This document shows positions 5,664-39,865 of a stretch of DNA of 64,000 bases, piece after piece; position 1 is the first letter of the stretch; every line of letters starts with the position of its first letter. This DNA comes from an uncultured Kiritimatiellota bacterium. GTDB taxonomy: Bacteria; Verrucomicrobiota; Kiritimatiellia; RFP12; UBA1067. The stretch lies in assembly GCA_934635225.1 (NCBI GenBank), contig CAKTYZ010000017.1, forward strand, positions 357-64,356, read 5' to 3'. The translations under genes were made by a program, and so were the position numbers. The notes below the pieces were generated by a model. That model was not told where the DNA came from and searched no databases. It saw nothing but the letters and a program-made list of their open reading frames with translations.

Positions 5664-5768
5664 ATGACTGTTCGTCTTATCGTCATTGTCGCTGTTGCAA
5701 TCGCCGCTGTGATAGGCATGGTTGTCATCGGAAAACTCGCGGACGGCAAGCCTGACCAGGAGGGCTGA
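5664..5768 (+). CDS. Hypothetical 34-aa hydrophobic peptide (MTVRLIVIVAVAIAAVIGMVVIGKLADGKPDQEG)
   Basis: It is a short intergenic ORF between the decarboxylase beta-subunit gene and rpoN, with one predicted transmembrane helix. There is no homology evidence. Confidence 0.2.
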   Translation: MTVRLIVIVAVAIAAVIGMVVIGKLADGKPDQEG

Positions 5769-7159: not shown

Positions 7160-8032
7160 ATGGAAAACTGCATGAAAATCGGTTGTCATCTGAGTTCGTC
7201 TGGCGGGTATCTCGCCATGGCCCAGACGGCTGTCTCGATTGGCGCGAATGTCTTTCAGTTCTTCACCAGGAACCCGCGCGGCGGCGCAGCAAAGCCTCTT
7301 GACAAGAATGACATCGCGGCGTTTCTCGACTATGCGGCGGAAAATGGCATTGGCCCGATTCTCGCACACGCGCCCTACACGCTGAATGCGGCGGGCTCCG
7401 AAGACCGCGTGCGTGACTTCGCCGAGAAGACGATGGCGGACGACTTGAACCGCCTTGCGTTCACGCCGGGTGCGCTCTACAACTTCCACCCGGGCAGTCA
7501 TGTCGGGCAGGGTACGGAGAAAGGCATCGCGCTCATCTCGTCCATGTTGGTTCGGATCTTGACGGATGCTGCGCGACAGGAGACGGACGGCACGACGATT
7601 CTGCTGGAGACGATGGCGGGAAAAGGCAGCGAAGTCGGGCGGAACTTCGAAGAGGTCCGGGCGATCATCGACGCGACGGAGGCTCGGCTTCCGACGGCGA
7701 ATCGTCCGCGTCTGGGCGTTTGTCTGGATACCTGTCATGTCTGGGATGGCGGTTATGACATTGTCGGTGATTTGGACGGCGTTGTGGGTGCGTTTGACCG
7801 CGTGGTTGGGTTGGACCGCTTGAAGGCGATTCACTTGAACGACTCGATGAATGCCCTCGGTGCGCATAAGGACCGCCACGAGAAGATCGGGAAGGGGAAA
7901 ATCGGACTCAATGCGTTCCAGCGCATCGTGAACCATCCGAAGCTGCGCGAGCTTCCGTTCTATCTGGAGACGCCGTGTGATTTGCAGGGATATCGTGATG
8001 AGATTGCGCTTCTGAAGTCATTGCGGGACTGA
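7160..8032 (+). CDS. nfo: Endonuclease IV
   Basis: The sequence [13 protein letters not shown]...[11 protein letters not shown]...LETMAGKG...HLNDS matches Nfo. Translation may instead begin at the second ATG at 7171. Confidence 0.85.
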
Positions 8033-9665: not shown

Positions 9666-12215
9666 ATGAGCGAAGAAGAGACGAAGACGGCGGCGCCGGT
9701 CGGTGGCGTTCTTGAGGATGTCAACATTGAAGAGGAGATGTCGAGAGACTACATCGACTACTCCATGAGCGTCATTGTCGGGCGTGCGCTGCCAGATGTG
9801 CGCGATGGGTTGAAGCCCGTCCATCGCCGCTGTCTCTTTGCCATGCACGAGCTCGGCAACTCCTGGAACACGAAGCACGTCAAGTCCGCCCGCGTCGTCG
9901 GCGAGGTGATCGGCAAGTACCATCCGCATGGCGATTCGTCCGTGTATGACGCAATCGTCCGCCTCGCGCAGGACTTCTCTTTGCGGCTGCCGCTCGTAGA
10001 CGGTCACGGCAACTTCGGCTCGATCGACGGCGATCCTCCGGCTGCGATGCGTTACACGGAAGTTCGCATGCAGAAGGTGACGAATGACTTGCTGGACGAT
10101 CTTGAGAAGGACACGGTGGACATGATGCCGAACTTCGACGAGACGCTTGAGGAGCCGACGGTCCTTCCCGCAAAGTTGCCGAACTTGCTCCTCAACGGCT
10201 CATCGGGCATTGCCGTTGGCATGGCGACGAACATCCCACCGCACAACCTTGGCGAGCTTTGTGACGGAATCGACCACTATGTGCAGCACCGTGAGGACTG
10301 CACGGTCGATGATCTCATGCAGTTCGTGAGGGGACCGGATTTCCCGACGGGGGCTGAGATCTGCGGCGTCAATGGCATCCGCGCGATGTATAAGCTCGGT
10401 CGCGGGCAGCTGACGGTGCGTGGCAAGGCGGAGGTCGTGACCGATGCGAAGACTGGGCGCGAGAAGATTGTCATCAGCGAGATTCCCTATGGCGTCAACA
10501 AGCGCGAGATGATCATGCGCATGGCCGCGCTCGTGAAGGAGAAGGTCATTGAGGGCATCAGCGACATCCGCGACATCTCGGGCGGGCATACAAGTGATGC
10601 GAAGGGTGCTCCGAAGGGGAGGAAGACGACGGAAGACGAAATCTGCATCGTCGTGGACCTTAAGCGCGATGCGGTTGGCGAGATTGTGCTGAACCACCTC
10701 TACAAGCACACGGATCTCCAGACGACGTTTGGTGCGATCATGCTGGCGATTGTTGGCGGTCGTCCGAAGATCCTGAACCTGAAGGACTATTTTAAGTGCT
10801 ATGTCGATCACCGCTTTGAGGTGATTACGCGACGGACCCGGTTCGACCTTCGCAAGGCTCAGGCGCGCAAGCACATTGTGGACGGCCTGCTTCTTGCGAT
10901 TGACAACCTTGACGAAGTCGTGCGGATCATCCGCGCGTCAAAGACGCGCGATGAGGCGAAGGGCTCGTTGCAGGCAAAGTTCGGGTTCTCAGACCTGCAG
11001 GTCAACGCGATTCTGGAGATGCGGCTCTACCAGCTCGTCGGCCTTGAGCGTGACAAGCTCACGGACGAGCTCGCGAAGCTTCTGACGGCGATTGCGGAGC
11101 TCGAGTCCATCCTCGCGGATCCCGAGAAGGTCTATGCGATCATTCGCGCGGACGTGGCGGACCTGAAACTTCGGTTTTGCTCCAAGGAGGATGCGAAGCG
11201 TCGCACGGAGATTGTGGCAGATGCCAACGAGGTCTCGATCAAGGACCTTATCCCCGACGAGCCGTGCGTAATTACGCTCTCGAACCGTGGCTACGTCAAG
11301 CGCGTGCCGCTCACGGAATACAAGGAGCAACGCCGTGGAGGCCATGGCGTCAGGGGGGCGCAGGTAAAGGAAGAGGACTTCATTCGTCTCGTCTTTGTCG
11401 CGGATACGCACGATGAGCTGATGTTCTTCACGAATACGGGGCGGCTTTTCGTGAAAGGGGCCTACGAGATCCCTGAAGCACCGCGTACGAGCTTTGGACG
11501 CCCGCTTATCAATCTCCTCAACCTCCAGTCAGGCGAGCAGGTCCTCCAGCTTCTGCCGATTCGCTCGTTCGAGGGTGATGTCGATGTCTTCTTTGCGACG
11601 CGCAATGGTACGGTCAAGAAGACGCTGCTTGGCGATTTCCAGAACGTCAACAAGTCGGGCATTCGCGCCGTCAACATCGAGGCGGGCGATGAACTCGTCG
11701 AGGTTCGCCTGGTCAAGCCGTCAGACGACGTCCTGATGCTGACGCAAAACGGGCGTGCGATGCGCTTTGCGGCGACAGATGTGCGCCGGATGGGCCGCAC
11801 GGCGACGGGCGTGCGCGGCATCCGTCTGCAGGAAGACGACCGCGTCGTCAGTTTTGACGTTGTCGATGACGCGAAGACGCTTTTCATCGCGACGGCGAAT
11901 GGCTATGGAAAGCGCTGCGAGTTCAAGGACTTCACGCGCCACAATCGTGGCGGGCAGGGGATGATTGGCATCAAGGGCGCGGATCGCAATGGCGCGGTCG
12001 TTGCGGCGCATGCCGTTTCCGATGACGAGAACGTTATCTCCATCACGAGCGACCAGCAGATGGTCCGAAGCCCGGTCGCGCAGTTCAATGTGCAGAGCCG
12101 TATGGCGCAGGGCGTGAAGCTCGTGCGGCTCTCCGAAGGCGCGACGCTTGTCTCGGTCTCGGTCTGCGAGGGCTCGGAAGAAGGCCTGTCCACAACGGAA
12201 GGAGGGGAAGCGTGA
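9666..12215 (+). CDS. gyrA: DNA gyrase subunit A
   Basis: The N-terminus [28 protein letters not shown] matches GyrA, and the C-terminus has beta-pinwheel repeats. Confidence 0.9.
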
Positions 12216-23183: not shown

Positions 23184-23220
23184 ACGCCCCTATCCCGTTT
23201 TATGATATAATATGCGTATC

Positions 23221-29542: not shown

Positions 29543-31234
29543 TTGCCGCTCATGCTGGGCGTTCTCATCCTTGCGGCGGTGACATGGTATCCCGCGACAA
29601 ACTGGGTCGATCGGCCTGATCCGGTCGCGAGCGTGCGTGCGCGAAAGGGCGGGACCCTTCGCTTCTCGGGCGGTCAAGGTCCGAAGAGTTACAACGCCTA
29701 CATCGACAACAACGCCTACACGCGGATGACGTTTGATCTCCAGTATGAGAACCTCATCTCCGTCAACGCGGCGACGCTTGACTTTGAGCCTGCACTGGCG
29801 CGGCGCTGGGCGATTTCGGATGACGGACGGGAGTTCACGTTCGTCTTGGATGCGCGGGCGAGCTGGTCGGACGGCGTGCCGGTGACGGCGGTGGATGTAA
29901 AGGGGACGTTCGACGCCGTGATGGACGCGAAAAGCGAGACGGGGCCGTGGAAAACGATCCTCGGTGCGTTCGAGAGTCCGGAGGTTCTGGACGTGCGCAC
30001 GGTGCGTTTCCGCAAGAAGGGGGAGAGTCCGCGCGACTGGCGCGACCTCATGCATTGCGGCATGTTCTCGATTTTGCCGCGCCATGCGCTTGCGGGACGC
30101 GATTTCAACAAGCTCTCCCTTCTCGGCTTGCCTGTCAGCGGGCCGTATTGCCTCGCGCGTGTCGAAGAGCAGGTCGAGAGCGAGTTCCGCCGCACGGGCG
30201 TTTGGTGGCGGCAGGACTTCCCGTCCATGCGCGGCCTTTACAACTTCGACCGCATCGTTCTGCGTTACTATGCGGACAACGAGAACGCCTTCGAGGCTCT
30301 GAAGAAGCGGGCGATAGACGTCTATCCCGTTTACTCCGCGCGCATCATGAACGCGGAGACGAAAGGCCCGAAGTTCGCGCACAATTGGATTCTGAAGCGT
30401 CGCGTGAAGAACCACGCGCCCATCGGCTTTCAGGGCTTTGCGATGAATATGCGCCGTCCGCCGTTCGATGACCTGAAGGTGCGACAGGCGATGGCGAAGC
30501 TCGTAGACCGCGAGACGATGAACCGCACGCTGATGAACGGCGAGTATTTCCTCCAGAAGAGCTACTACACTGACCTCTATGACGCGGCGCATCCCTGCAC
30601 GAACAGGCAGTGGACGTATGACGTTGCGGGCGCGAAGCGGCTTTTGTCCGAGGCGGGATACGCGAAGGGGTTCAAGTTCTGCTTTCTCTCGCGTTCGGCG
30701 GGCGAGGACAAGTTCCTCTCTCCGTTCTCGCAGGCGCTGGCCGCGTGTAACATTCAGATGGAGATCGTGCGCAAGGACTTCGCCAGCTGGATGCGTGACA
30801 TGGACGCGTTCAACTTTGACATGACTTGGGCGGCGTGGGGCGCGAGCCTTTTCCGCAATCCCGAAACGATCTGGCATTCGTCCGAAGGCAAGAGTCCGGG
30901 CGGCAACAACGTGACGGGGCTTGACATTCCTGATGTGGATGCGCTCATTGCCGCCGAGAAAACGATGATGTCGGCCGCAGACCGTGAGGCGGCTTACCGT
31001 CGGATTGACGCGCAGGTTGCTGCACAAGTCCCGTATGTCCTCTTGTGGAACACGGACGAGCATCGGCTTCTCTACTGGAATAAGTTCGGCATGCCGCGCA
31101 CGGTCCTCGGACGGTACGGCGATGAGGACGGCGTTCTGTCATATTGGTGGTATGACGAGGACCGTGTCCGCGAGTTGGACGAGGCCATTTCGTCCGATTC
31201 CTGCCTTCCCAATGTTCCCGAACGCGTTCAATAG
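29543..31234 (+). CDS. ABC transporter substrate-binding protein, family 5 (peptide/nickel type)
   Basis: Its length and the motifs (GGTLRF..., YVLLWN) match the SBP_bac_5 family. Confidence 0.7.
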   Translation: MPLMLGVLILAAVTWYPATNWVDRPDPVASVRARKGGTLRFSGGQGPKSYNAYIDNNAYTRMTFDLQYENLISVNAATLDFEPALARRWAISDDGREFTFVLDARASWSDGVPVTAVDVKGTFDAVMDAKSETGPWKTILGAFESPEVLDVRTVRFRKKGESPRDWRDLMHCGMFSILPRHALAGRDFNKLSLLGLPVSGPYCLARVEEQVESEFRRTGVWWRQDFPSMRGLYNFDRIVLRYYADNENAFEALKKRAIDVYPVYSARIMNAETKGPKFAHNWILKRRVKNHAPIGFQGFAMNMRRPPFDDLKVRQAMAKLVDRETMNRTLMNGEYFLQKSYYTDLYDAAHPCTNRQWTYDVAGAKRLLSEAGYAKGFKFCFLSRSAGEDKFLSPFSQALAACNIQMEIVRKDFASWMRDMDAFNFDMTWAAWGASLFRNPETIWHSSEGKSPGGNNVTGLDIPDVDALIAAEKTMMSAADREAAYRRIDAQVAAQVPYVLLWNTDEHRLLYWNKFGMPRTVLGRYGDEDGVLSYWWYDEDRVRELDEAISSDSCLPNVPERVQ

Positions 31235-31424
31235 GCAGCTTTGGATCGTCAAGTCGTATCGTCGTATGCGAATGAACGCGTTCTCCTGTTGAAACGAACG
31301 CGTTCTCTTGTGTGAACGAACGCGTTCTCTTATATAAGTGAACGCGTTCACTTGGTGGAATGAACGCGTTCGTTTGCCATAGAGAACGCGTTCACTTGCT
31401 CTGGAGAACGCGTTCACTTGCCTT
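31220..31424. repeat. Array of the 10-bp perfect palindrome GAACGCGTTC: seven copies phased at exactly 22 bp (31273, 31295, 31317, 31339, 31361, 31383, 31405), plus one copy overlapping the stop codon of the SBP gene (31220)
   Basis: This was counted directly from the sequence. The units share an asymmetric flank, giving the consensus GAACGCGTTC(T/A)CTTG. Confidence 0.9.
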
Positions 31425-31536
31425 CGGGGATGGTAAGAGGCAGAATCCGCATCCTTGCGGCGGCCTCTGAACACCATGGGAATGAAGATTTTTTGTCTCC
31501 TGTTCAGGTCGCTATTGACGCAGTAGCCGCGTTTTT

Positions 31537-31545
31537 GGTATACTG
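31537..31545 (+). promoter_or_regulatory. tRNA-Ala promoter: TTGACG, an 18-nt spacer, then TGGTATACT
   Basis: The sequence TTGACGcagtagccgcgtttttggTATACT lies 20 nt upstream of the tRNA 5' end. Confidence 0.5.
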
Positions 31546-31565
31546 TATCTCACATTCATCTGAAT

Positions 31566-31641
<76 letters not shown>

Positions 31642-31799
31642 TCCTTGATCGTGTGTAAATAAAAGGGTTTCCGTGTTTTCTGGCCGACGCGGGAATCCGC
31701 CCTGGACGAGGGGCGTAGGGTGTTTTACAACACTTTACAACACTTGCGCGGGGTTGTCCGAGAGGTGACTTGTAAAGAGGGTGGGGCGGCAAAAACTCC

Positions 31800-32190
31800 T
31801 TAAGTCACTTTGGCCAGACGTGAATCGTAGGCATGTGCGGTCTCTCCGTTGAGTGATTCCCTGTGGATTGAGTTGATCCAGTCCTCGAGCCGCTTCTGGC
31901 TCAGGAACTCGCGGCCGTGGACTCTCGCGAAGTGCCGCGGCGATGTCCAGGCGCACCGGTTCACGTACTGGTTCCAGGCGGTCCCGAGGATTTCGCGTCG
32001 GTGGTCCGTGAGGCGTTTCCCCGCGTCCTGCCTTATGGCATGCCTCCTTCTGCTCATGGCGTCGATCTTTCGTGTTCCTGGTTTCTTCTGCGCCGCTGGC
32101 CACCCCATGGGGGTGGCGTGGCTTGTCTTTCCTCTTCTTCGATCCCCATGGCCTTCCTCTCTTCCTTGCTGACCCGTTAGATATTACCAT
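31800..32190 (-). pseudogene. Decayed gene for an AT-hook protein (MVISNGSARKRGRPWGSKKRK...) that is frameshifted into ...DAMSRRRHAIRQ...LSQKRLEDWINSIHRE; a possible remnant of a mobile element or integrase
   Basis: Two overlapping - strand ORFs (31735-32190 and 31800-32108) read as one protein only if a frameshift is assumed. A paralogous, truncated copy lies at 39544-39810. Confidence 0.4.
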
Positions 32191-32192
32191 TT
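32037..32192. repeat. Direct repeat, copy A (about 155 bp), upstream of the alpha-2-macroglobulin gene; it contains the palindrome CCACCCCATGGGGGTGG
   Basis: It aligns with 39585-39794 (copy B). The shared blocks are GGCATGCyTCCTTCTGCTCATGGCGTCGrTCTTTCGT and GGCCACCCCATGGGGGTGGCGTGGC...TCTTCTTCGATCCCCATGGCCTTCCTCTCTT..TTGCTGACCCGTTAGATATTACCATT. Confidence 0.8.
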
Positions 32193-32299
32193 GGGAATGC
32201 GAGGTTCATGGCGATGAAAATATGATACAATATCCGCGCCTTTCAGGAGAAGGGCGAAGAGATAATCTAAGCCAATAAAGTGGAAGAAAGGAGACGGAG

Positions 32300-35200
32300 A
32301 TGAAGGATTCTGGAGAGAAATTGCGTGGGGGAATGCGCGGCGCTTACCCCGTTTGCATCGGTTTGCTGGCATTGGTGGTCGTATGTTCCGCCGTGTTCTC
32401 GTGCTGGTTGTACGGGCGGGTGCGTTCGTATGAGAAGGCGCATGGCGTGGAGATTCTTTCCGCTGCGCAAGAGGATGTTGGGAAGACGGGCGGCGAAGAG
32501 CAGAAATACGATCCGCCGAAGCCACTGCCAGAGACGGTGCGCGATGCGTCCGTAGGGGTGAAGACGCGGACGAATGCGGTGGAAAAGGCGGAAATGAAGG
32601 TCGCGTCCGTCAATTACGACGGGGATACGCGGCTTGAGGTCACGCTGACGGAGCGTCCGAACATGGACGGCATTCGACAGTACGTGGAGGTCGGGCCGAT
32701 GGACGAGGGGGTTGCCGGAATCTCCTACAAGGCGGACTACAACTACGGGAAGCGCGTCTACGAGCCGAAACTCATCATCACGGGCGATTTCGCGAACGGG
32801 ACGAACGTCACGCTGCGCCTGCGCAAGGGACTCTCGCTCTACGGGAAGTCGTCCTTGGCGGAGGGTTCCCTGGCGGAGGACTACACCTATACCTTTCACC
32901 GACGGGATCTTAAGCCGTCCGTGGCATTCGCCCATGCGGGACGCTACCTGCCGCCGAGCGGCGGACGGACGCTCGCCATCGAGAGCGTGAACGAGCCGAG
33001 CGTCCGGGCGGAAATCCGCCGCGTGGAACCGGCGAACATCGTCCAGTTGCTGGCGCGAGAGGAGAATAAATATGCGCGTTATTTCAACTTTTATTACTGC
33101 GACAATGGAGATGCTAGGGATACGGCGGAACTTGCCGGAGAGGTGACGGAAAGTTTTCATAAGTGCCAGAATACGCTCAACCGAAAGGAAATCTGGCAGA
33201 TGCCGGTCGGCGCGGCGGATGGCGGTCCGAGCAACGGCGTGTACTTGGTGAGCATCTGCCACGGGCCCACATACCGACTCGTCTGTGTCTCCGACCTCGG
33301 GCTGTCCGTGCGACAGAGTGGAGACGATTTGGGCGTGTGGGTGACTTCGCTGACGACGGGACGGCCCATGCCGGGAGCGAAGATTCGGGTGTTTTCCGCC
33401 GCGAATATCGAAGTGATGACCGGGACGAGCAATGCGGACGGCTGGTGCGTTCCAACGCGCATCCAAAAGGGTGCTCCGTTCGCCGTCGTGGTGACGACAC
33501 CGTCGGACGATGACCGCACGTTCATGGCCCTCACGGATCGCATGGAGGTTGACGAAACCTACACGGACGGTGCGCGCGCAGACTACGTTGCGAAGGAGGC
33601 GTGTACGGGGTTCGCGTGGACAGAGCGCGGCATCTATCGGCACGACGAGAAGATCTTCTACCATCTTCTTCTGAGGACGGGCGAGATGAAGGCTCCGAAG
33701 CCGTTCCCCGTGAACCTGCGACTTGTCACCCCGAAAGGTGATGTTTTCATCAGGAAAACGCTCGTTTCGGACGAATCGGGGGCGATTGCGTACAATGGCT
33801 TCGCCGTGCCGGCGGACCAGCCGAGCGGGAAGTGGCAGATTCTCGCCGTTCTGCCGGGCGAGAAGGAGGTCGTGCTCGCCGAACGCGAAATCAAGGTCGA
33901 GGAGTTCGCACCACCGCAGGTGCGCGTCACGGTTGCCGCAAAGGAGGAGGATGTGAATCCCACGAACTTCGCCTTCACCGTCTCCGCCGAACACCTCTTC
34001 GGGGGCGCGGCGACCGCGCTTCGGTGCGAGGGTGCGGTCGTCTTCGAGGACGTGCCGTTCGCCCCGGCGGCGTGGAAGGGCTACCAGTTCGGGAACGAGG
34101 ACCTCGGACTGAAGCCGAGCTTCCGGCGGCTTGGCGCGAAAGTTCTCGATGCGGAGGGGCGGATGGCGTTTGTCGCGCCGCTCTGGAAGGATTCGGGGCT
34201 GCCGAAGGCGATGGTTCGCACCACGGCGCAGGGGACGGTGTTCGAGGATGGGGGACGACCGGCGACGGCCCGCGCGACGGTTCTTCAGCACTATTATCCT
34301 TATTATATAGGCTCGACGCTTGCGAGTTGGGTGCGCAAGCCCGAACAGGGAATGCCACGCCTTCTGCTCGCCTGCGTGAACTCGGACGGGACGCGCGTTG
34401 CCGAGGCGAAGAGCCTGACCGTCCGGCTTGAGCGCATTGATTCCGTCTACTCCTACAAGCAGGGGGACAACGGCGTGAACACGTGGAACAGCGAGCGCAT
34501 CCGCGTGCCGGCATCGGACGATTGGACGGTCACCACGCGGACGGATGCGGATACGGAGGTCATCCTGCCGGTTGCCGAGAGTGGGGACTACATGGTCACG
34601 GTGTTCGATGTCGAGACAGGTGTCTCCTACGCCCGCGCATTCTATCTGAGCACATGGGGCGACGAGGCCATCCGTGCGCCGCTCGCCAACCCGACGGAAG
34701 TGACGATTCGCGCCGACAAGTCCGTCTACCGTGTGGGCGAAGCGCCGCGCCTCATCGTGAAGTCGCCGTTCGCCGGATTCGCGATGCTCTCCGTTCAGCG
34801 CGAGCGCGAACGCTATACTCAGATTCTCGAACTCACGAACGCGACGAGCGAAGTGGTGCTTCGTCCCGTCAGCCGTGAGGACGCGCCGAACCTCGACGTC
34901 TACCTCTCGGTCGTGCAGAGCGTGGCGGAGAACTCGAAGCACCTCGCCGCGCGGGCGCACGGTCAGACGACGGTGAAGGTGATGCCGAAGGAATACGAGA
35001 TTCCCGTCAAGGCCAGTGCGACGGTTGAAGCGGCGAAGACCGTGCGGGTCCAGGTTCAGGCACCGGGTGCGGAGGCCGTGTGGGTGACGGTCGTGGATGA
35101 GGGAATCAACCTCCTGACGGGCGAACCGACTCCCGATCCGGTCGCGGCGTTTGCAGAGGAGCGCGGTGCGGACCATCCGCTCTACGACATCTACGGCAGG

Positions 35201-39254: not shown

Positions 39255-39584
39255 GTATTCAGAAGTGCATGTCCGTACGAACCGTTGGCGTCTCAAGTAC
39301 TCGGAATTGCGGACGGATTTGAGCGCAAAATCGCTTGATGGGAGTGGAAAGACGTGTAAAATCGTGCATTATTTTGAGGTTCGTGCCAATATGTGCACTT
39401 GTCGGGATTCGCGCCATTTCGCCACGCTTTGAGGTAAACGGTTTTGGTCAGAGGGTAAGGCGGGCGCGGCGGATTGCCTGCGGTGCTCGGCACGGAGAAG
39501 TAAGACACGCCGCGTCCTGGCTGTCTTACAAGTCCTAAGCGTCCTACCCGACGCGGATTGATTCCCCACGCTCAGCCGTTTTTT

Positions 39585-39794
39585 TGGCATGCTTCCTTCT
39601 GCTCATGGCGTCGGTCTTTCGTCTGATGGTTTGTGTTGCAGTTCCCATCATACACGATTTCCTCGACGCCGTGGGCGTTTTCCTTCGCCGCCGGCGGCCA
39701 CCCCCATGGGGGTGGCGTGGCGTGCTTTTCTTCTTCTTCGATCCCCATGGCCTTCCTCTCTTATTTGCTGACCCGTTAGATATTACCATTTTCG
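39585..39794. repeat. Direct repeat, copy B (about 210 bp, with an internal insertion of about 60 bp), downstream of pbpC
   Basis: See copy A. On the - strand it encodes MVISNGSANKRGRPWGSKKKK... Confidence 0.8.
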
Positions 39795-39865
39795 CGTTGG
39801 GATTTTTCACTCGCCCCCCTTGCGCGGCGTCAGAAAAAAGAGTATACTACACACCGTTTTCGATT

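Follow-up and report, generated by a model that had tools for sequence, protein, structure and literature searches.

Seven copies of a 10-bp palindrome held at a 22-bp period upstream of a tRNA-Ala gene in an uncultured gut Kiritimatiellae bacterium

What keeps seven exact copies of a short palindrome in strict phase between the end of an operon and a tRNA gene? The question is raised by a 64,000-nucleotide stretch from an uncultured Kiritimatiellota bacterium (GenBank assembly GCA_934635225.1, contig CAKTYZ010000017.1, positions 357 to 64,356 of the forward strand; hereafter the window, whose numbering is used unless another contig is named), in which a tandem array separates a solute-binding protein (SBP) gene from tRNA-Ala. 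The 10-bp palindrome GAACGCGTTC has eight exact matches in the window against 0.39 expected, a number reached in none of 100 shuffles. The matches start at 31220, 31274, 31296, 31318, 31340, 31362, 31384 and 31406; the last seven, which cover 31274-31415 and mark the starts of the array units, have a period of exactly 22 bp. Tandem Repeats Finder called 31270-31422 with periods of 22 and 44, and the seven exact copies reported by the first-pass annotation are confirmed. That annotation also placed an eighth copy over the SBP stop codon, which is incorrect: the copy takes in the codons E-R-V and the initial base of Q, which leaves 2 nt before the TAG (31232-34). It lies 54 bp from unit 1, off the 22-bp register, and it may be in part a coding coincidence, because the C-terminal motif VP(L/V/E)RV is kept in SBP homologues and its 'RV' is conserved in the family. 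The array is statistically striking and structurally unusual.

When the seven units are aligned in register, all 70 core positions are identical (10 invariant columns out of 10) and there is not a single indel. The linker, on the other hand, is variable in 11 of its 12 columns, and the probability that all 10 core columns fall by chance among the 11 invariant ones is about 1.7e-5. Within the linker, positions +2 to +5 (CTTG) are conserved at about 86%, while positions 6-12 show a mean pairwise identity of 28%, which is the random level; only 10-15 of the 22 bp of each unit are conserved. The (T/A)CTTG flank that had been described as conserved is exact in four of the seven units and carries one or two mismatches in the other three. 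Because positions -3/-2 (A, R) mirror positions +2/+3 (Y, T), each site can be read as a symmetric 16-bp consensus, AR-n-GAACGCGTTC-n-YT, that is, an imperfect dyad with an additional asymmetric TG, and 16-bp dyads are typical of dimer sites. Invariant cores at a fixed phase with random linkers are the signature of a constrained site at a constrained phase, and the absence of indels argues that sequence and spacing are both held. In this respect, the array illustrates how invariant cores with random linkers can expose selection on sequence and on helical phase. At 10.5 bp per turn, a period of 22 bp adds about 34 degrees per unit and about 206 degrees across the whole array. The claim that all sites face the same side of the DNA is thus valid for neighbouring sites but not for the entire array, and the sites would trace a shallow spiral rather than one flat face.

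We propose, with a probability of roughly 40%, that the array consists of phased operator-type sites bound cooperatively by a putative dimeric DNA-binding protein. We favour this reading because the cores are invariant, the phase is free of indels, the linkers are random, the core has been proven to serve as an operator dyad, and pairs of sites at the same phase recur widely. The preference of this palindrome for a spacing of 20-22 bp in prokaryote-like contigs, the site pair kept by both short alleles, the short arrays found in other genomes and the constancy of the long allele, all described below, speak for it as well. The anatomy also agrees with one of the two functions suggested by the first-pass annotation, a cooperative platform for a dimeric regulator, for which no binding protein was identified. 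Indeed, the footprinted Rex operator ATGTGAACGCGTTCACAA of S. avermitilis has GAACGCGTTC in its middle (PMC5355995), and the same 10-mer is also present in operators of the TetR-family regulator KstR such as ACTAGAACGCGTTCTAAT (PMC1995591). Since validated or inferred operators of unrelated regulators (Rex, KstR and LysR-type) contain it, elsewhere in pairs at 21-22 bp, the core can be considered a generic dimer-binding dyad. For Rex itself the agreement is mixed. Unit 4 agrees with the Rex dyad TTGTGAA-N4-TTCACAA at 10 of 14 specified positions and with the S. avermitilis cydA1 Rex operator at 15 of 18, units 6 and 7 carry one TTCAC half each, and units 1-3 and 5 are poor matches. No Rex-type site at up to three mismatches was found in the array, and Rex-like sites at this threshold are not above chance in the window; the idea of a Rex regulon was set aside.

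According to this proposal, each site would be a palindrome of about 16 bp built on GAACGCGTTC, and the putative protein would probably pair its dimers in the manner of tetrameric LysR-, TetR- and DeoR/GlpR-type regulators. Dimers bound to neighbouring sites, about two helical turns apart, would be able to touch each other, and seven occupied sites might form a gently spiralling nucleoprotein block. Such a block would fill the space that separates the last gene of the ispG-to-SBP run from the promoter of tRNA-Ala. The array begins 40 nt past the SBP stop codon and its distance to the -35 element is 100 bp from the end of the last core and 241 bp from the start of the first; these figures correct the distance of about 120-260 bp given previously. 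Because no intrinsic terminator was detected in the gap between the SBP stop codon and the tRNA-Ala promoter, the platform could insulate or tune transcription at this junction. We infer that its likeliest effect would be to block read-through from the SBP operon and/or to modulate the tRNA-Ala promoter remotely. It is also possible that the array is a pure titration or storage site for its putative protein. The coordinates of the array, its surroundings, its alleles and related sites are collected in Table 1.

Table 1. Position of the array, of neighbouring features, of its alleles and of comparable sites in other contigs.
Feature	Location	Strand	Remarks
Seven-unit array	31274..31427	+	each unit: GAACGCGTTC core, nCTTG flank and 7 unconstrained bases
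Eighth GAACGCGTTC copy	31220..31229	n/a	in codons E-R-V-Q of the SBP gene
Unit 4 with flanks	31336..31353	n/a	perfect 18-bp palindrome AAGTGAACGCGTTCACTT; dyad centre of the array
Units 3 and 4 with linker	31318..31349	n/a	32-bp near-perfect palindrome; self-complementary linker tcttatataagt
Long imperfect palindrome	31258..31431	n/a	174 bp, centred on unit 4
SBP_bac_5 solute-binding protein gene	29543..31234	+	Pfam PF00496, E 5.8e-56; last of the ispG / Wzy_C / aminotransferase / SBP run
Sigma-70-type promoter	31515..31544	+	TTGACG-18-TATACT with TG extension, before tRNA
tRNA-Ala	31566..31641	+	anticodon GGC
7-unit allele	L180 (and 11 similar places), L184		base-for-base as in the window; at least 13 contigs
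Allele A (2 units)	L172, L181-L183; lacks 110 bp, 31311..31420		unit 1 and a hybrid of units 2/7 (tcttg/ccttcgg)
Allele B (2 units)	L008; lacks 110 bp, 31284..31393		hybrid of units 1/6, and unit 7, whose core is now GAACGCGTTT
Three GAACGCGTTC cores at 22 bp	L016 3112-3165; L022 4734-4787; L031 7786-7839		'Bacteroidaceae'-labelled genome CAYPZK01
Non-coding segment of ~350 bp	L029 6539-6881; L150 4587-4952		82% identity; 2-3 GAACGCGTTC units at 22 bp; PVC-type contigs
AAACCAC-N4-GTGGTTT-like dyads	L176 (same in L177) 7586-7671		four copies, 22-bp period, no indels
ATGCCAGCCCTTCGTCCTGCCG repeat	L176 (same in L177) 7685-7752		three copies, 22-bp period, no indels
GGGGACNGTCCCC, GGGGAC(T/A)GTCCCC	L005 (also L006, L007) 10381-10527		three copies at 21 bp, a fourth ~90 bp off

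Is the array stable within the species? We surveyed 21 metagenome contigs that have the exact small open reading frame (ORF) beside tRNA-Ala; the contigs carrying the locus come from human-gut samples. At least 13 independent metagenome assemblies have the 7-unit allele in exactly the same sequence. In each of two shorter alleles, A and B, a neighbouring pair of sites remains at 22 bp and the outer flanks are unchanged. Sample ERZ28614275 carries the 7-unit allele and sample ERZ27263827 a 2-unit allele. These strains belong to the same species, their flanking genes being 99.0-99.6% identical to those of the window (about 99% average nucleotide identity, ANI), and the 2-unit strains have an identical tRNA-Ala promoter. 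The linkers retained by A differ from those retained by B, and the 7-unit form contains both sets. The ancestral state is therefore the long array, or an even longer one, from which A and B each arose by an in-register deletion of its own that removed 110 bp, or five units. The smallest working form seems to be a pair of adjacent sites, and seven sites would represent a long allele prone to recombination. By the criterion of the first-pass annotation, under which the array is not functional if it is absent or unconserved in close relatives keeping the flanking genes, the outcome is mixed: the 7-copy state is not conserved, but two units are.

The array also seems to be a recombination breakpoint, as suggested by contig L172, whose divergent haplotype block (31384-33256) starts inside it. 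This block comprises the array end, the tRNA, the spacer and the N-terminus of the alpha-2-macroglobulin (A2M) gene, and is 94% identical to the window, versus 99-99.6% on either side. The assemblies of L185 and L186 break off precisely where tRNA-Ala starts, within its first bases, and the sequence of L008 departs from that of the window at position 31507; the array-to-tRNA region may vary among some strains or may be confusing to assemblers. Outside the species, the SBP orthologues (81% and 76% identity; L001-L007) and the A2M orthologues (90%, 64%, 60% and 58% identity; L176-L179, L188-L190) have other neighbours, with neither a tRNA nor a GAACGCGTTC array. None of the species-level relatives examined keeps the SBP-tRNA-A2M junction, and the array of the window sits at a synteny break.

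The array is also symmetric on a larger scale. Its dyad centre lies at 31344/31345 and the arms on both sides (31258-31344 and 31345-31431) are 72% complementary. Linker 3 is self-complementary at 10 of 12 positions, and linkers 0-2 on the left roughly correspond to the reverse complement of linkers 5-7 on the right, symmetric linkers pairing at 25 of 48 positions versus 17.4 expected (P ~0.008). As a single strand, the region is predicted to fold into a nested hairpin of -126 kcal/mol (z -7.2). Such an architecture would be explained by a self-maintaining, quasi-palindromic minisatellite that involves no sequence-specific protein, in which a short palindrome was duplicated both tandemly and invertedly, cores are 'corrected' by template switching within a hairpin or cruciform, linkers drift and the array collapses by slippage between units. 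This explanation, which we regard as rather unlikely, would account for the inverted linkers and the very strong fold, for the fact that each of the two independent 110-bp deletions removes the dyad centre, for a unit in contig L150 bearing the symmetric double variant GACCGCGGTC, as a palindrome-templated change would yield, and for the presence in sister Kiritimatiellae of other locus-specific 21-22-bp arrays made of different palindromes. Template switching, however, should render the linkers complementary or identical, whereas positions 6-12 are random. Moreover, it leaves unexplained both the conserved asymmetric CTTG flank and the recurrence of the same 10-mer, 22-bp phase and tCTTG flank in unrelated genomes, and an allele that is the same in at least 13 samples is not hypermutable.

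The hairpin might also act at the RNA level. In this case, the 3' end of the SBP operon would fold into a long interrupted hairpin able to stop exonucleases or read-through into the tRNA gene, as do the repetitive extragenic palindromic (REP) sequences and bacterial interspersed mosaic elements (BIMEs) of E. coli. The location of the array 40 nt after a stop codon with no terminator between, the fold energy and the strain-variable copy number, as in BIMEs, are all consistent with this idea, and so the array resembles REP/BIME clusters in its operon 3'-end position, hairpin potential and variable cluster size. We nevertheless find an RNA element improbable. A hairpin needs pairing and not identical sequence, and no covariation was seen; the long hairpin is gone in both 2-unit alleles and no U-tract follows it; no Rfam family scored above threshold, and the motif is not dispersed through the 64 kb as REPs are. 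Within the window a single locus accounts for every one of the 8 exact copies, as well as for each of the 13 sites that match the 15-bp motif at up to two mismatches. When RNA families were searched over the locus only the tRNA was matched, weak microRNA-like matches reflecting the hairpin, and the contigs with related arrays (L016, L022, L029, L031 and L150) gave no matches to Rfam-type families.

How often does the same core occur in the same phase elsewhere? A full scan of 185,579 species-representative genomes revealed 31 loci with two cores 22 bp apart. None of them exceeds three cores, which makes the 7-copy array exceptional. Most of the 31 are intergenic pairs of Streptomyces, ttGAACGCGTTCaa-N8-ttGAACGCGTTCaa, one group of which, with copies 22 bp apart, separates a gene of the LysR family from a divergently oriented gene for a membrane protein. 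A viral scan for core pairs spaced at 22 bp returned 0 matches. In prokaryote-like metagenome contigs, 20-22 bp is the commonest distance between cores, with 18 of 81 de-duplicated pairs among the matches listed (range 14-44). The raw peak at 21 bp in the metagenome scan came from a low-GC, ORF-free repeat. This multi-copy element (L040-L130; Ga0049107, Ga0056114, Ga0056123, Ga0056130) has four GAACGCGTTC cores with spacings of 21, 38 and 11 bp and lies near contig ends, and the Ga0049107 and Ga0056xxx contigs have a GC content of 0.44 and no ORFs. The family was set aside, being probably a eukaryotic host repeat.

Two of the remaining cases are dispersed non-coding elements. In the metagenome-assembled genome (MAG) CAYPZK01, the three cores belong to a conserved module of about 190 bp with inverted CTCCGCAGAGAAAAGT at both sides, which follows rpoC at one locus and at the others adjoins a proB-like and a BlaR1/TonB gene, respectively. 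The module looks like a miniature inverted-repeat transposable element (MITE), and the MAG represents a different phylum because its ProA is only 41% identical to that of the window. The second case is the segment of about 350 bp found in contigs of the Planctomycetes-Verrucomicrobia-Chlamydiae (PVC) type, L029 (Verrucomicrobia UBA6354) and L150, which lies in differing gene contexts, ends in GAACGCGTTCtCTTG in both, and shares core, 22-bp phase and tCTTG flank with the window array. L150 also has a partial second copy at 5674-5765 and an extra unit, the one with the symmetric variant. One may therefore ask whether the window array is the remnant or miniature of a mobile or dispersed MITE-like element, whose sites would bind an element-encoded transposase, recombinase or regulator in trans. 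Besides the module at three housekeeping loci of one Bacteroidales MAG and the segment of L029 and L150, this possibility is consistent with the two inverted halves of the window array, which recall abutted element ends, and with its location at a synteny break beside a tRNA. We consider it unlikely, as the 64-kb window contains no second copy of the core or flanks and no transposase or integrase gene, neither a target-site duplication nor an empty-site allele was found, and the array flanks have no similarity to the other elements.

Other Kiritimatiellae carry arrays of the same design with different palindromes. In the sister species represented by L176 and L177 (A2M region 92% identical at the DNA level to the window), two 22-bp arrays lie between ftsH and A2M; more distant relatives show no conservation of 22-bp arrays upstream of A2M. 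In a Kiritimatiellae MAG (L005), a third array is located close to the 5' end annotated for mfd, or within it. It is tempting to imagine that gut Kiritimatiellae possess an undescribed class of locus-specific short-palindrome arrays phased at 21-22 bp, with a core that differs by lineage and with each array assembling a DNA-binding protein that forms filaments and evolves together with its site. The cores of this class may be GAACGCGTTC here, AAACCAC-N4-GTGGTTT together with the second 22-bp repeat in L176, and GGGGACNGTCCCC in L005. This generalization is highly speculative. If true, such arrays would represent the chromosomal counterpart of plasmid centromeres or of iteron handcuffing, with roles in insulation, chromosome organisation or the control of mini-elements.

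Several observations weigh against the proposal that the array is a cooperative binding platform. No cognate protein was found among the genes of the window and no regulator gene adjoins the array. The sites extend from -135 to -285 relative to the start site, far from the tRNA promoter, and overlap no promoter; sites of this kind are missing from the other tRNA promoter of the window, that of tRNA-Arg/Met/Pro; and comparable arrays elsewhere are found between convergent genes or in dispersed non-coding elements, not at promoters. Hairpin-templated correction could also keep cores identical and linkers free with no protein involved. In addition, the long array is dispensable, five of its seven sites having been lost twice independently at about 99% ANI, and such a fast copy turnover ill fits the long time needed to randomise linkers. 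Linkers saturated with change imply an old array with long-maintained cores, yet five units were lost twice within about 1% divergence. Possible ways out of this tension are that the array is under selection in some lineages only, that it was acquired as a block, or that looping out in hairpins gives the linkers an unusually high mutation rate. As for the more specific suggestion that the array is an upstream activator of the tRNA promoter, the case is weak: the sites lie 135-285 bp upstream, the second tRNA promoter lacks an array, and the loss of five sites leaves the promoter unchanged.

The second function suggested in the first-pass annotation was an iteron-type replication or partition site, the relic of an integrated element such as a plasmid or phage. 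In form, a run of seven units with a 22-bp period recalls iteron origins, a tRNA gene is nearby, and the plasmids of chlamydiae, which are also PVC bacteria, use four 22-bp repeats as origin with varying copy number (PMC7143637). However, the window is ordinary chromosome, and this origin for the array is very improbable. To a distance of about 30 kb on both sides the array has no rep, par or int gene near it, all neighbours being housekeeping; Pfam and NCBIfam searches of ~50 ORFs of the window yielded no rep, par, int or transposase gene. No DnaA box was found at up to one mismatch in 30900-31900, nor an AT-rich unwinding region, the lowest GC content in 40 bp being 35%, at the tRNA -10 element. 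Neither 72,556 plasmids nor 50,697 phages gave a match, and cumulative GC skew is monotonic. The repeat itself is of the wrong kind: iterons are 17-22 bp, asymmetric and conserved over their full length, whereas here only a symmetric 10-bp core and four flank bases (10-15 of 22 bp) are conserved. An 8-nt match, CTTGGTGG, between the chlamydial iteron and the unit 4 linker was judged to be chance. A partition centromere of the parC, sopC or parS type was discarded on the absence of partition genes in the window and of a plasmid match.

An attachment region of an integrated element was rejected as well. The array is located 5' of the tRNA, which is not the side where elements usually integrate; on the 3' side there are ORFs that lack a Pfam match, after which the next genes are A2M and PBP1C; and no repeat of the tRNA-Ala 3' end is present among the listed repeat families of the window. 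The 'integrase-like gene debris' noted beside the array is not supported either, since the minus-strand ORFs concerned (151 and 102 amino acids) have no Pfam match and are in part a duplicated non-coding segment. This segment of about 170 bp (32030-32196), which overlaps those ORFs, is duplicated at 39580-39795 with 93% identity in matched blocks and with indels of 27 and 23 bp that would not all preserve a reading frame. The A2M promoter is immediately preceded by one copy and the tRNA-Arg/Met/Pro promoter by the other.

The rest of the window is consistent with the chromosome of an uncultured member of the Kiritimatiellae. Its best named homologues are Kiritimatiellae MAG proteins, those of the SBP gene being named Kiritimatiellae ABC-transporter SBP. 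The genes are nearly all on the + strand, cumulative GC skew climbs throughout, and the functions are housekeeping (gyrA, gatB, rpoN, ispG, alr, der, tsaD, carbohydrate-active enzymes). On the 3' side of tRNA-Ala, about 650 bp without a credible gene precede the A2M/PBP1C pair; a short tandem repeat, TTTACAACAC, is present there in 2.2 copies (31724-31745, ~85 bp downstream of the tRNA). The only DNA-binding genes of the window encode an extracytoplasmic function (ECF) sigma factor and RpoN. Because rpoN is present, a sigma-54 enhancer was considered and rejected: by eye there is no TGGCAC-N5-TTGC downstream, and the TTGC of units 5-7 has no -24 element. Extended -10 motifs (TGnTATAAT-like, e.g. 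ATATGATACAAT and TGTGGTATAAT) precede genes at 23200, 32220, 42104, 49275, 7135 and 41001, which suggests that sigma-70 promoters of the host organism rely on an extended -10 element.

Why should such a locus matter? If a protein assembles on it, nature would offer here a phased operator of seven sites, in a phylum that is uncultured and has no known transcription factor site, and the natural deletion alleles, seven versus two sites, could be used to read its effect by combining metagenomics with metatranscriptomics. If it is only an unstable quasi-palindrome, it would chiefly be an assembly-breaking marker useful for strain typing of a gut species.

Compared with known systems, the array belongs to the general kind of phased tandem protein-binding sites and fits no specific known family. 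Clustered regularly interspaced short palindromic repeats (CRISPR) consist of repeats of 23-55 bp with spacers of similar length and are accompanied by cas genes; with 10-bp cores, 12-bp linkers and no cas domains in the window, the array is not one of them, as had been correctly stated. REP elements occur in hundreds of dispersed copies per enterobacterial genome. The array has in common with REP/BIME clusters the extragenic palindromes at an operon 3' end, the strain-variable clusters and the hairpin potential, but it differs from them in that its core is confined to one locus in 64 kb and its units are shorter (10-16 bp) and rigidly phased. Iteron origins such as the R6K gamma ori, with its seven 22-bp iterons, are similar to the array in period. 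This likeness extends to the number of repeats (4-7) and to a copy number that varies between isolates, as in the C. trachomatis plasmid (PMC7143637), but iterons are asymmetric, conserved over their full length and accompanied by DnaA boxes, an AT-rich stretch and a neighbouring rep gene. The chlamydial iterons, formally the nearest analogue, are likewise asymmetric and adjoin replication genes. In plasmid centromeres, of which the ParR/parC systems of R1 and pSK41 and the sopC of F (twelve 43-bp units, each with an inverted repeat) are examples, dimers bound to tandem phased sites form a superhelical filament, and fewer repeats than the natural number still work. The array would share with them the tandem phased sites and the flexible copy number, protein binding to it being putative; centromeres, however, adjoin partition genes and act as their operator, whereas the context of the array is chromosomal housekeeping. 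Finally, GlpR, of the DeoR family, binds tandem 20-bp operators in the E. coli glp promoters. The array resembles these and other paired or tandem operators (the regulatory and activation binding sites, RBS/ABS, of LysR regulators and the double operators of TetR regulators) in its dyads, which in such systems measure 14-20 bp, lie about two turns apart and allow dimer contacts. The LysR/TetR-type geometry is matched most clearly in the 2-unit alleles. Such operators, in contrast, have two to five sites over a promoter and usually an adjacent regulator gene, whereas the array has seven sites, neither of these two attributes, and a polymorphic copy number.

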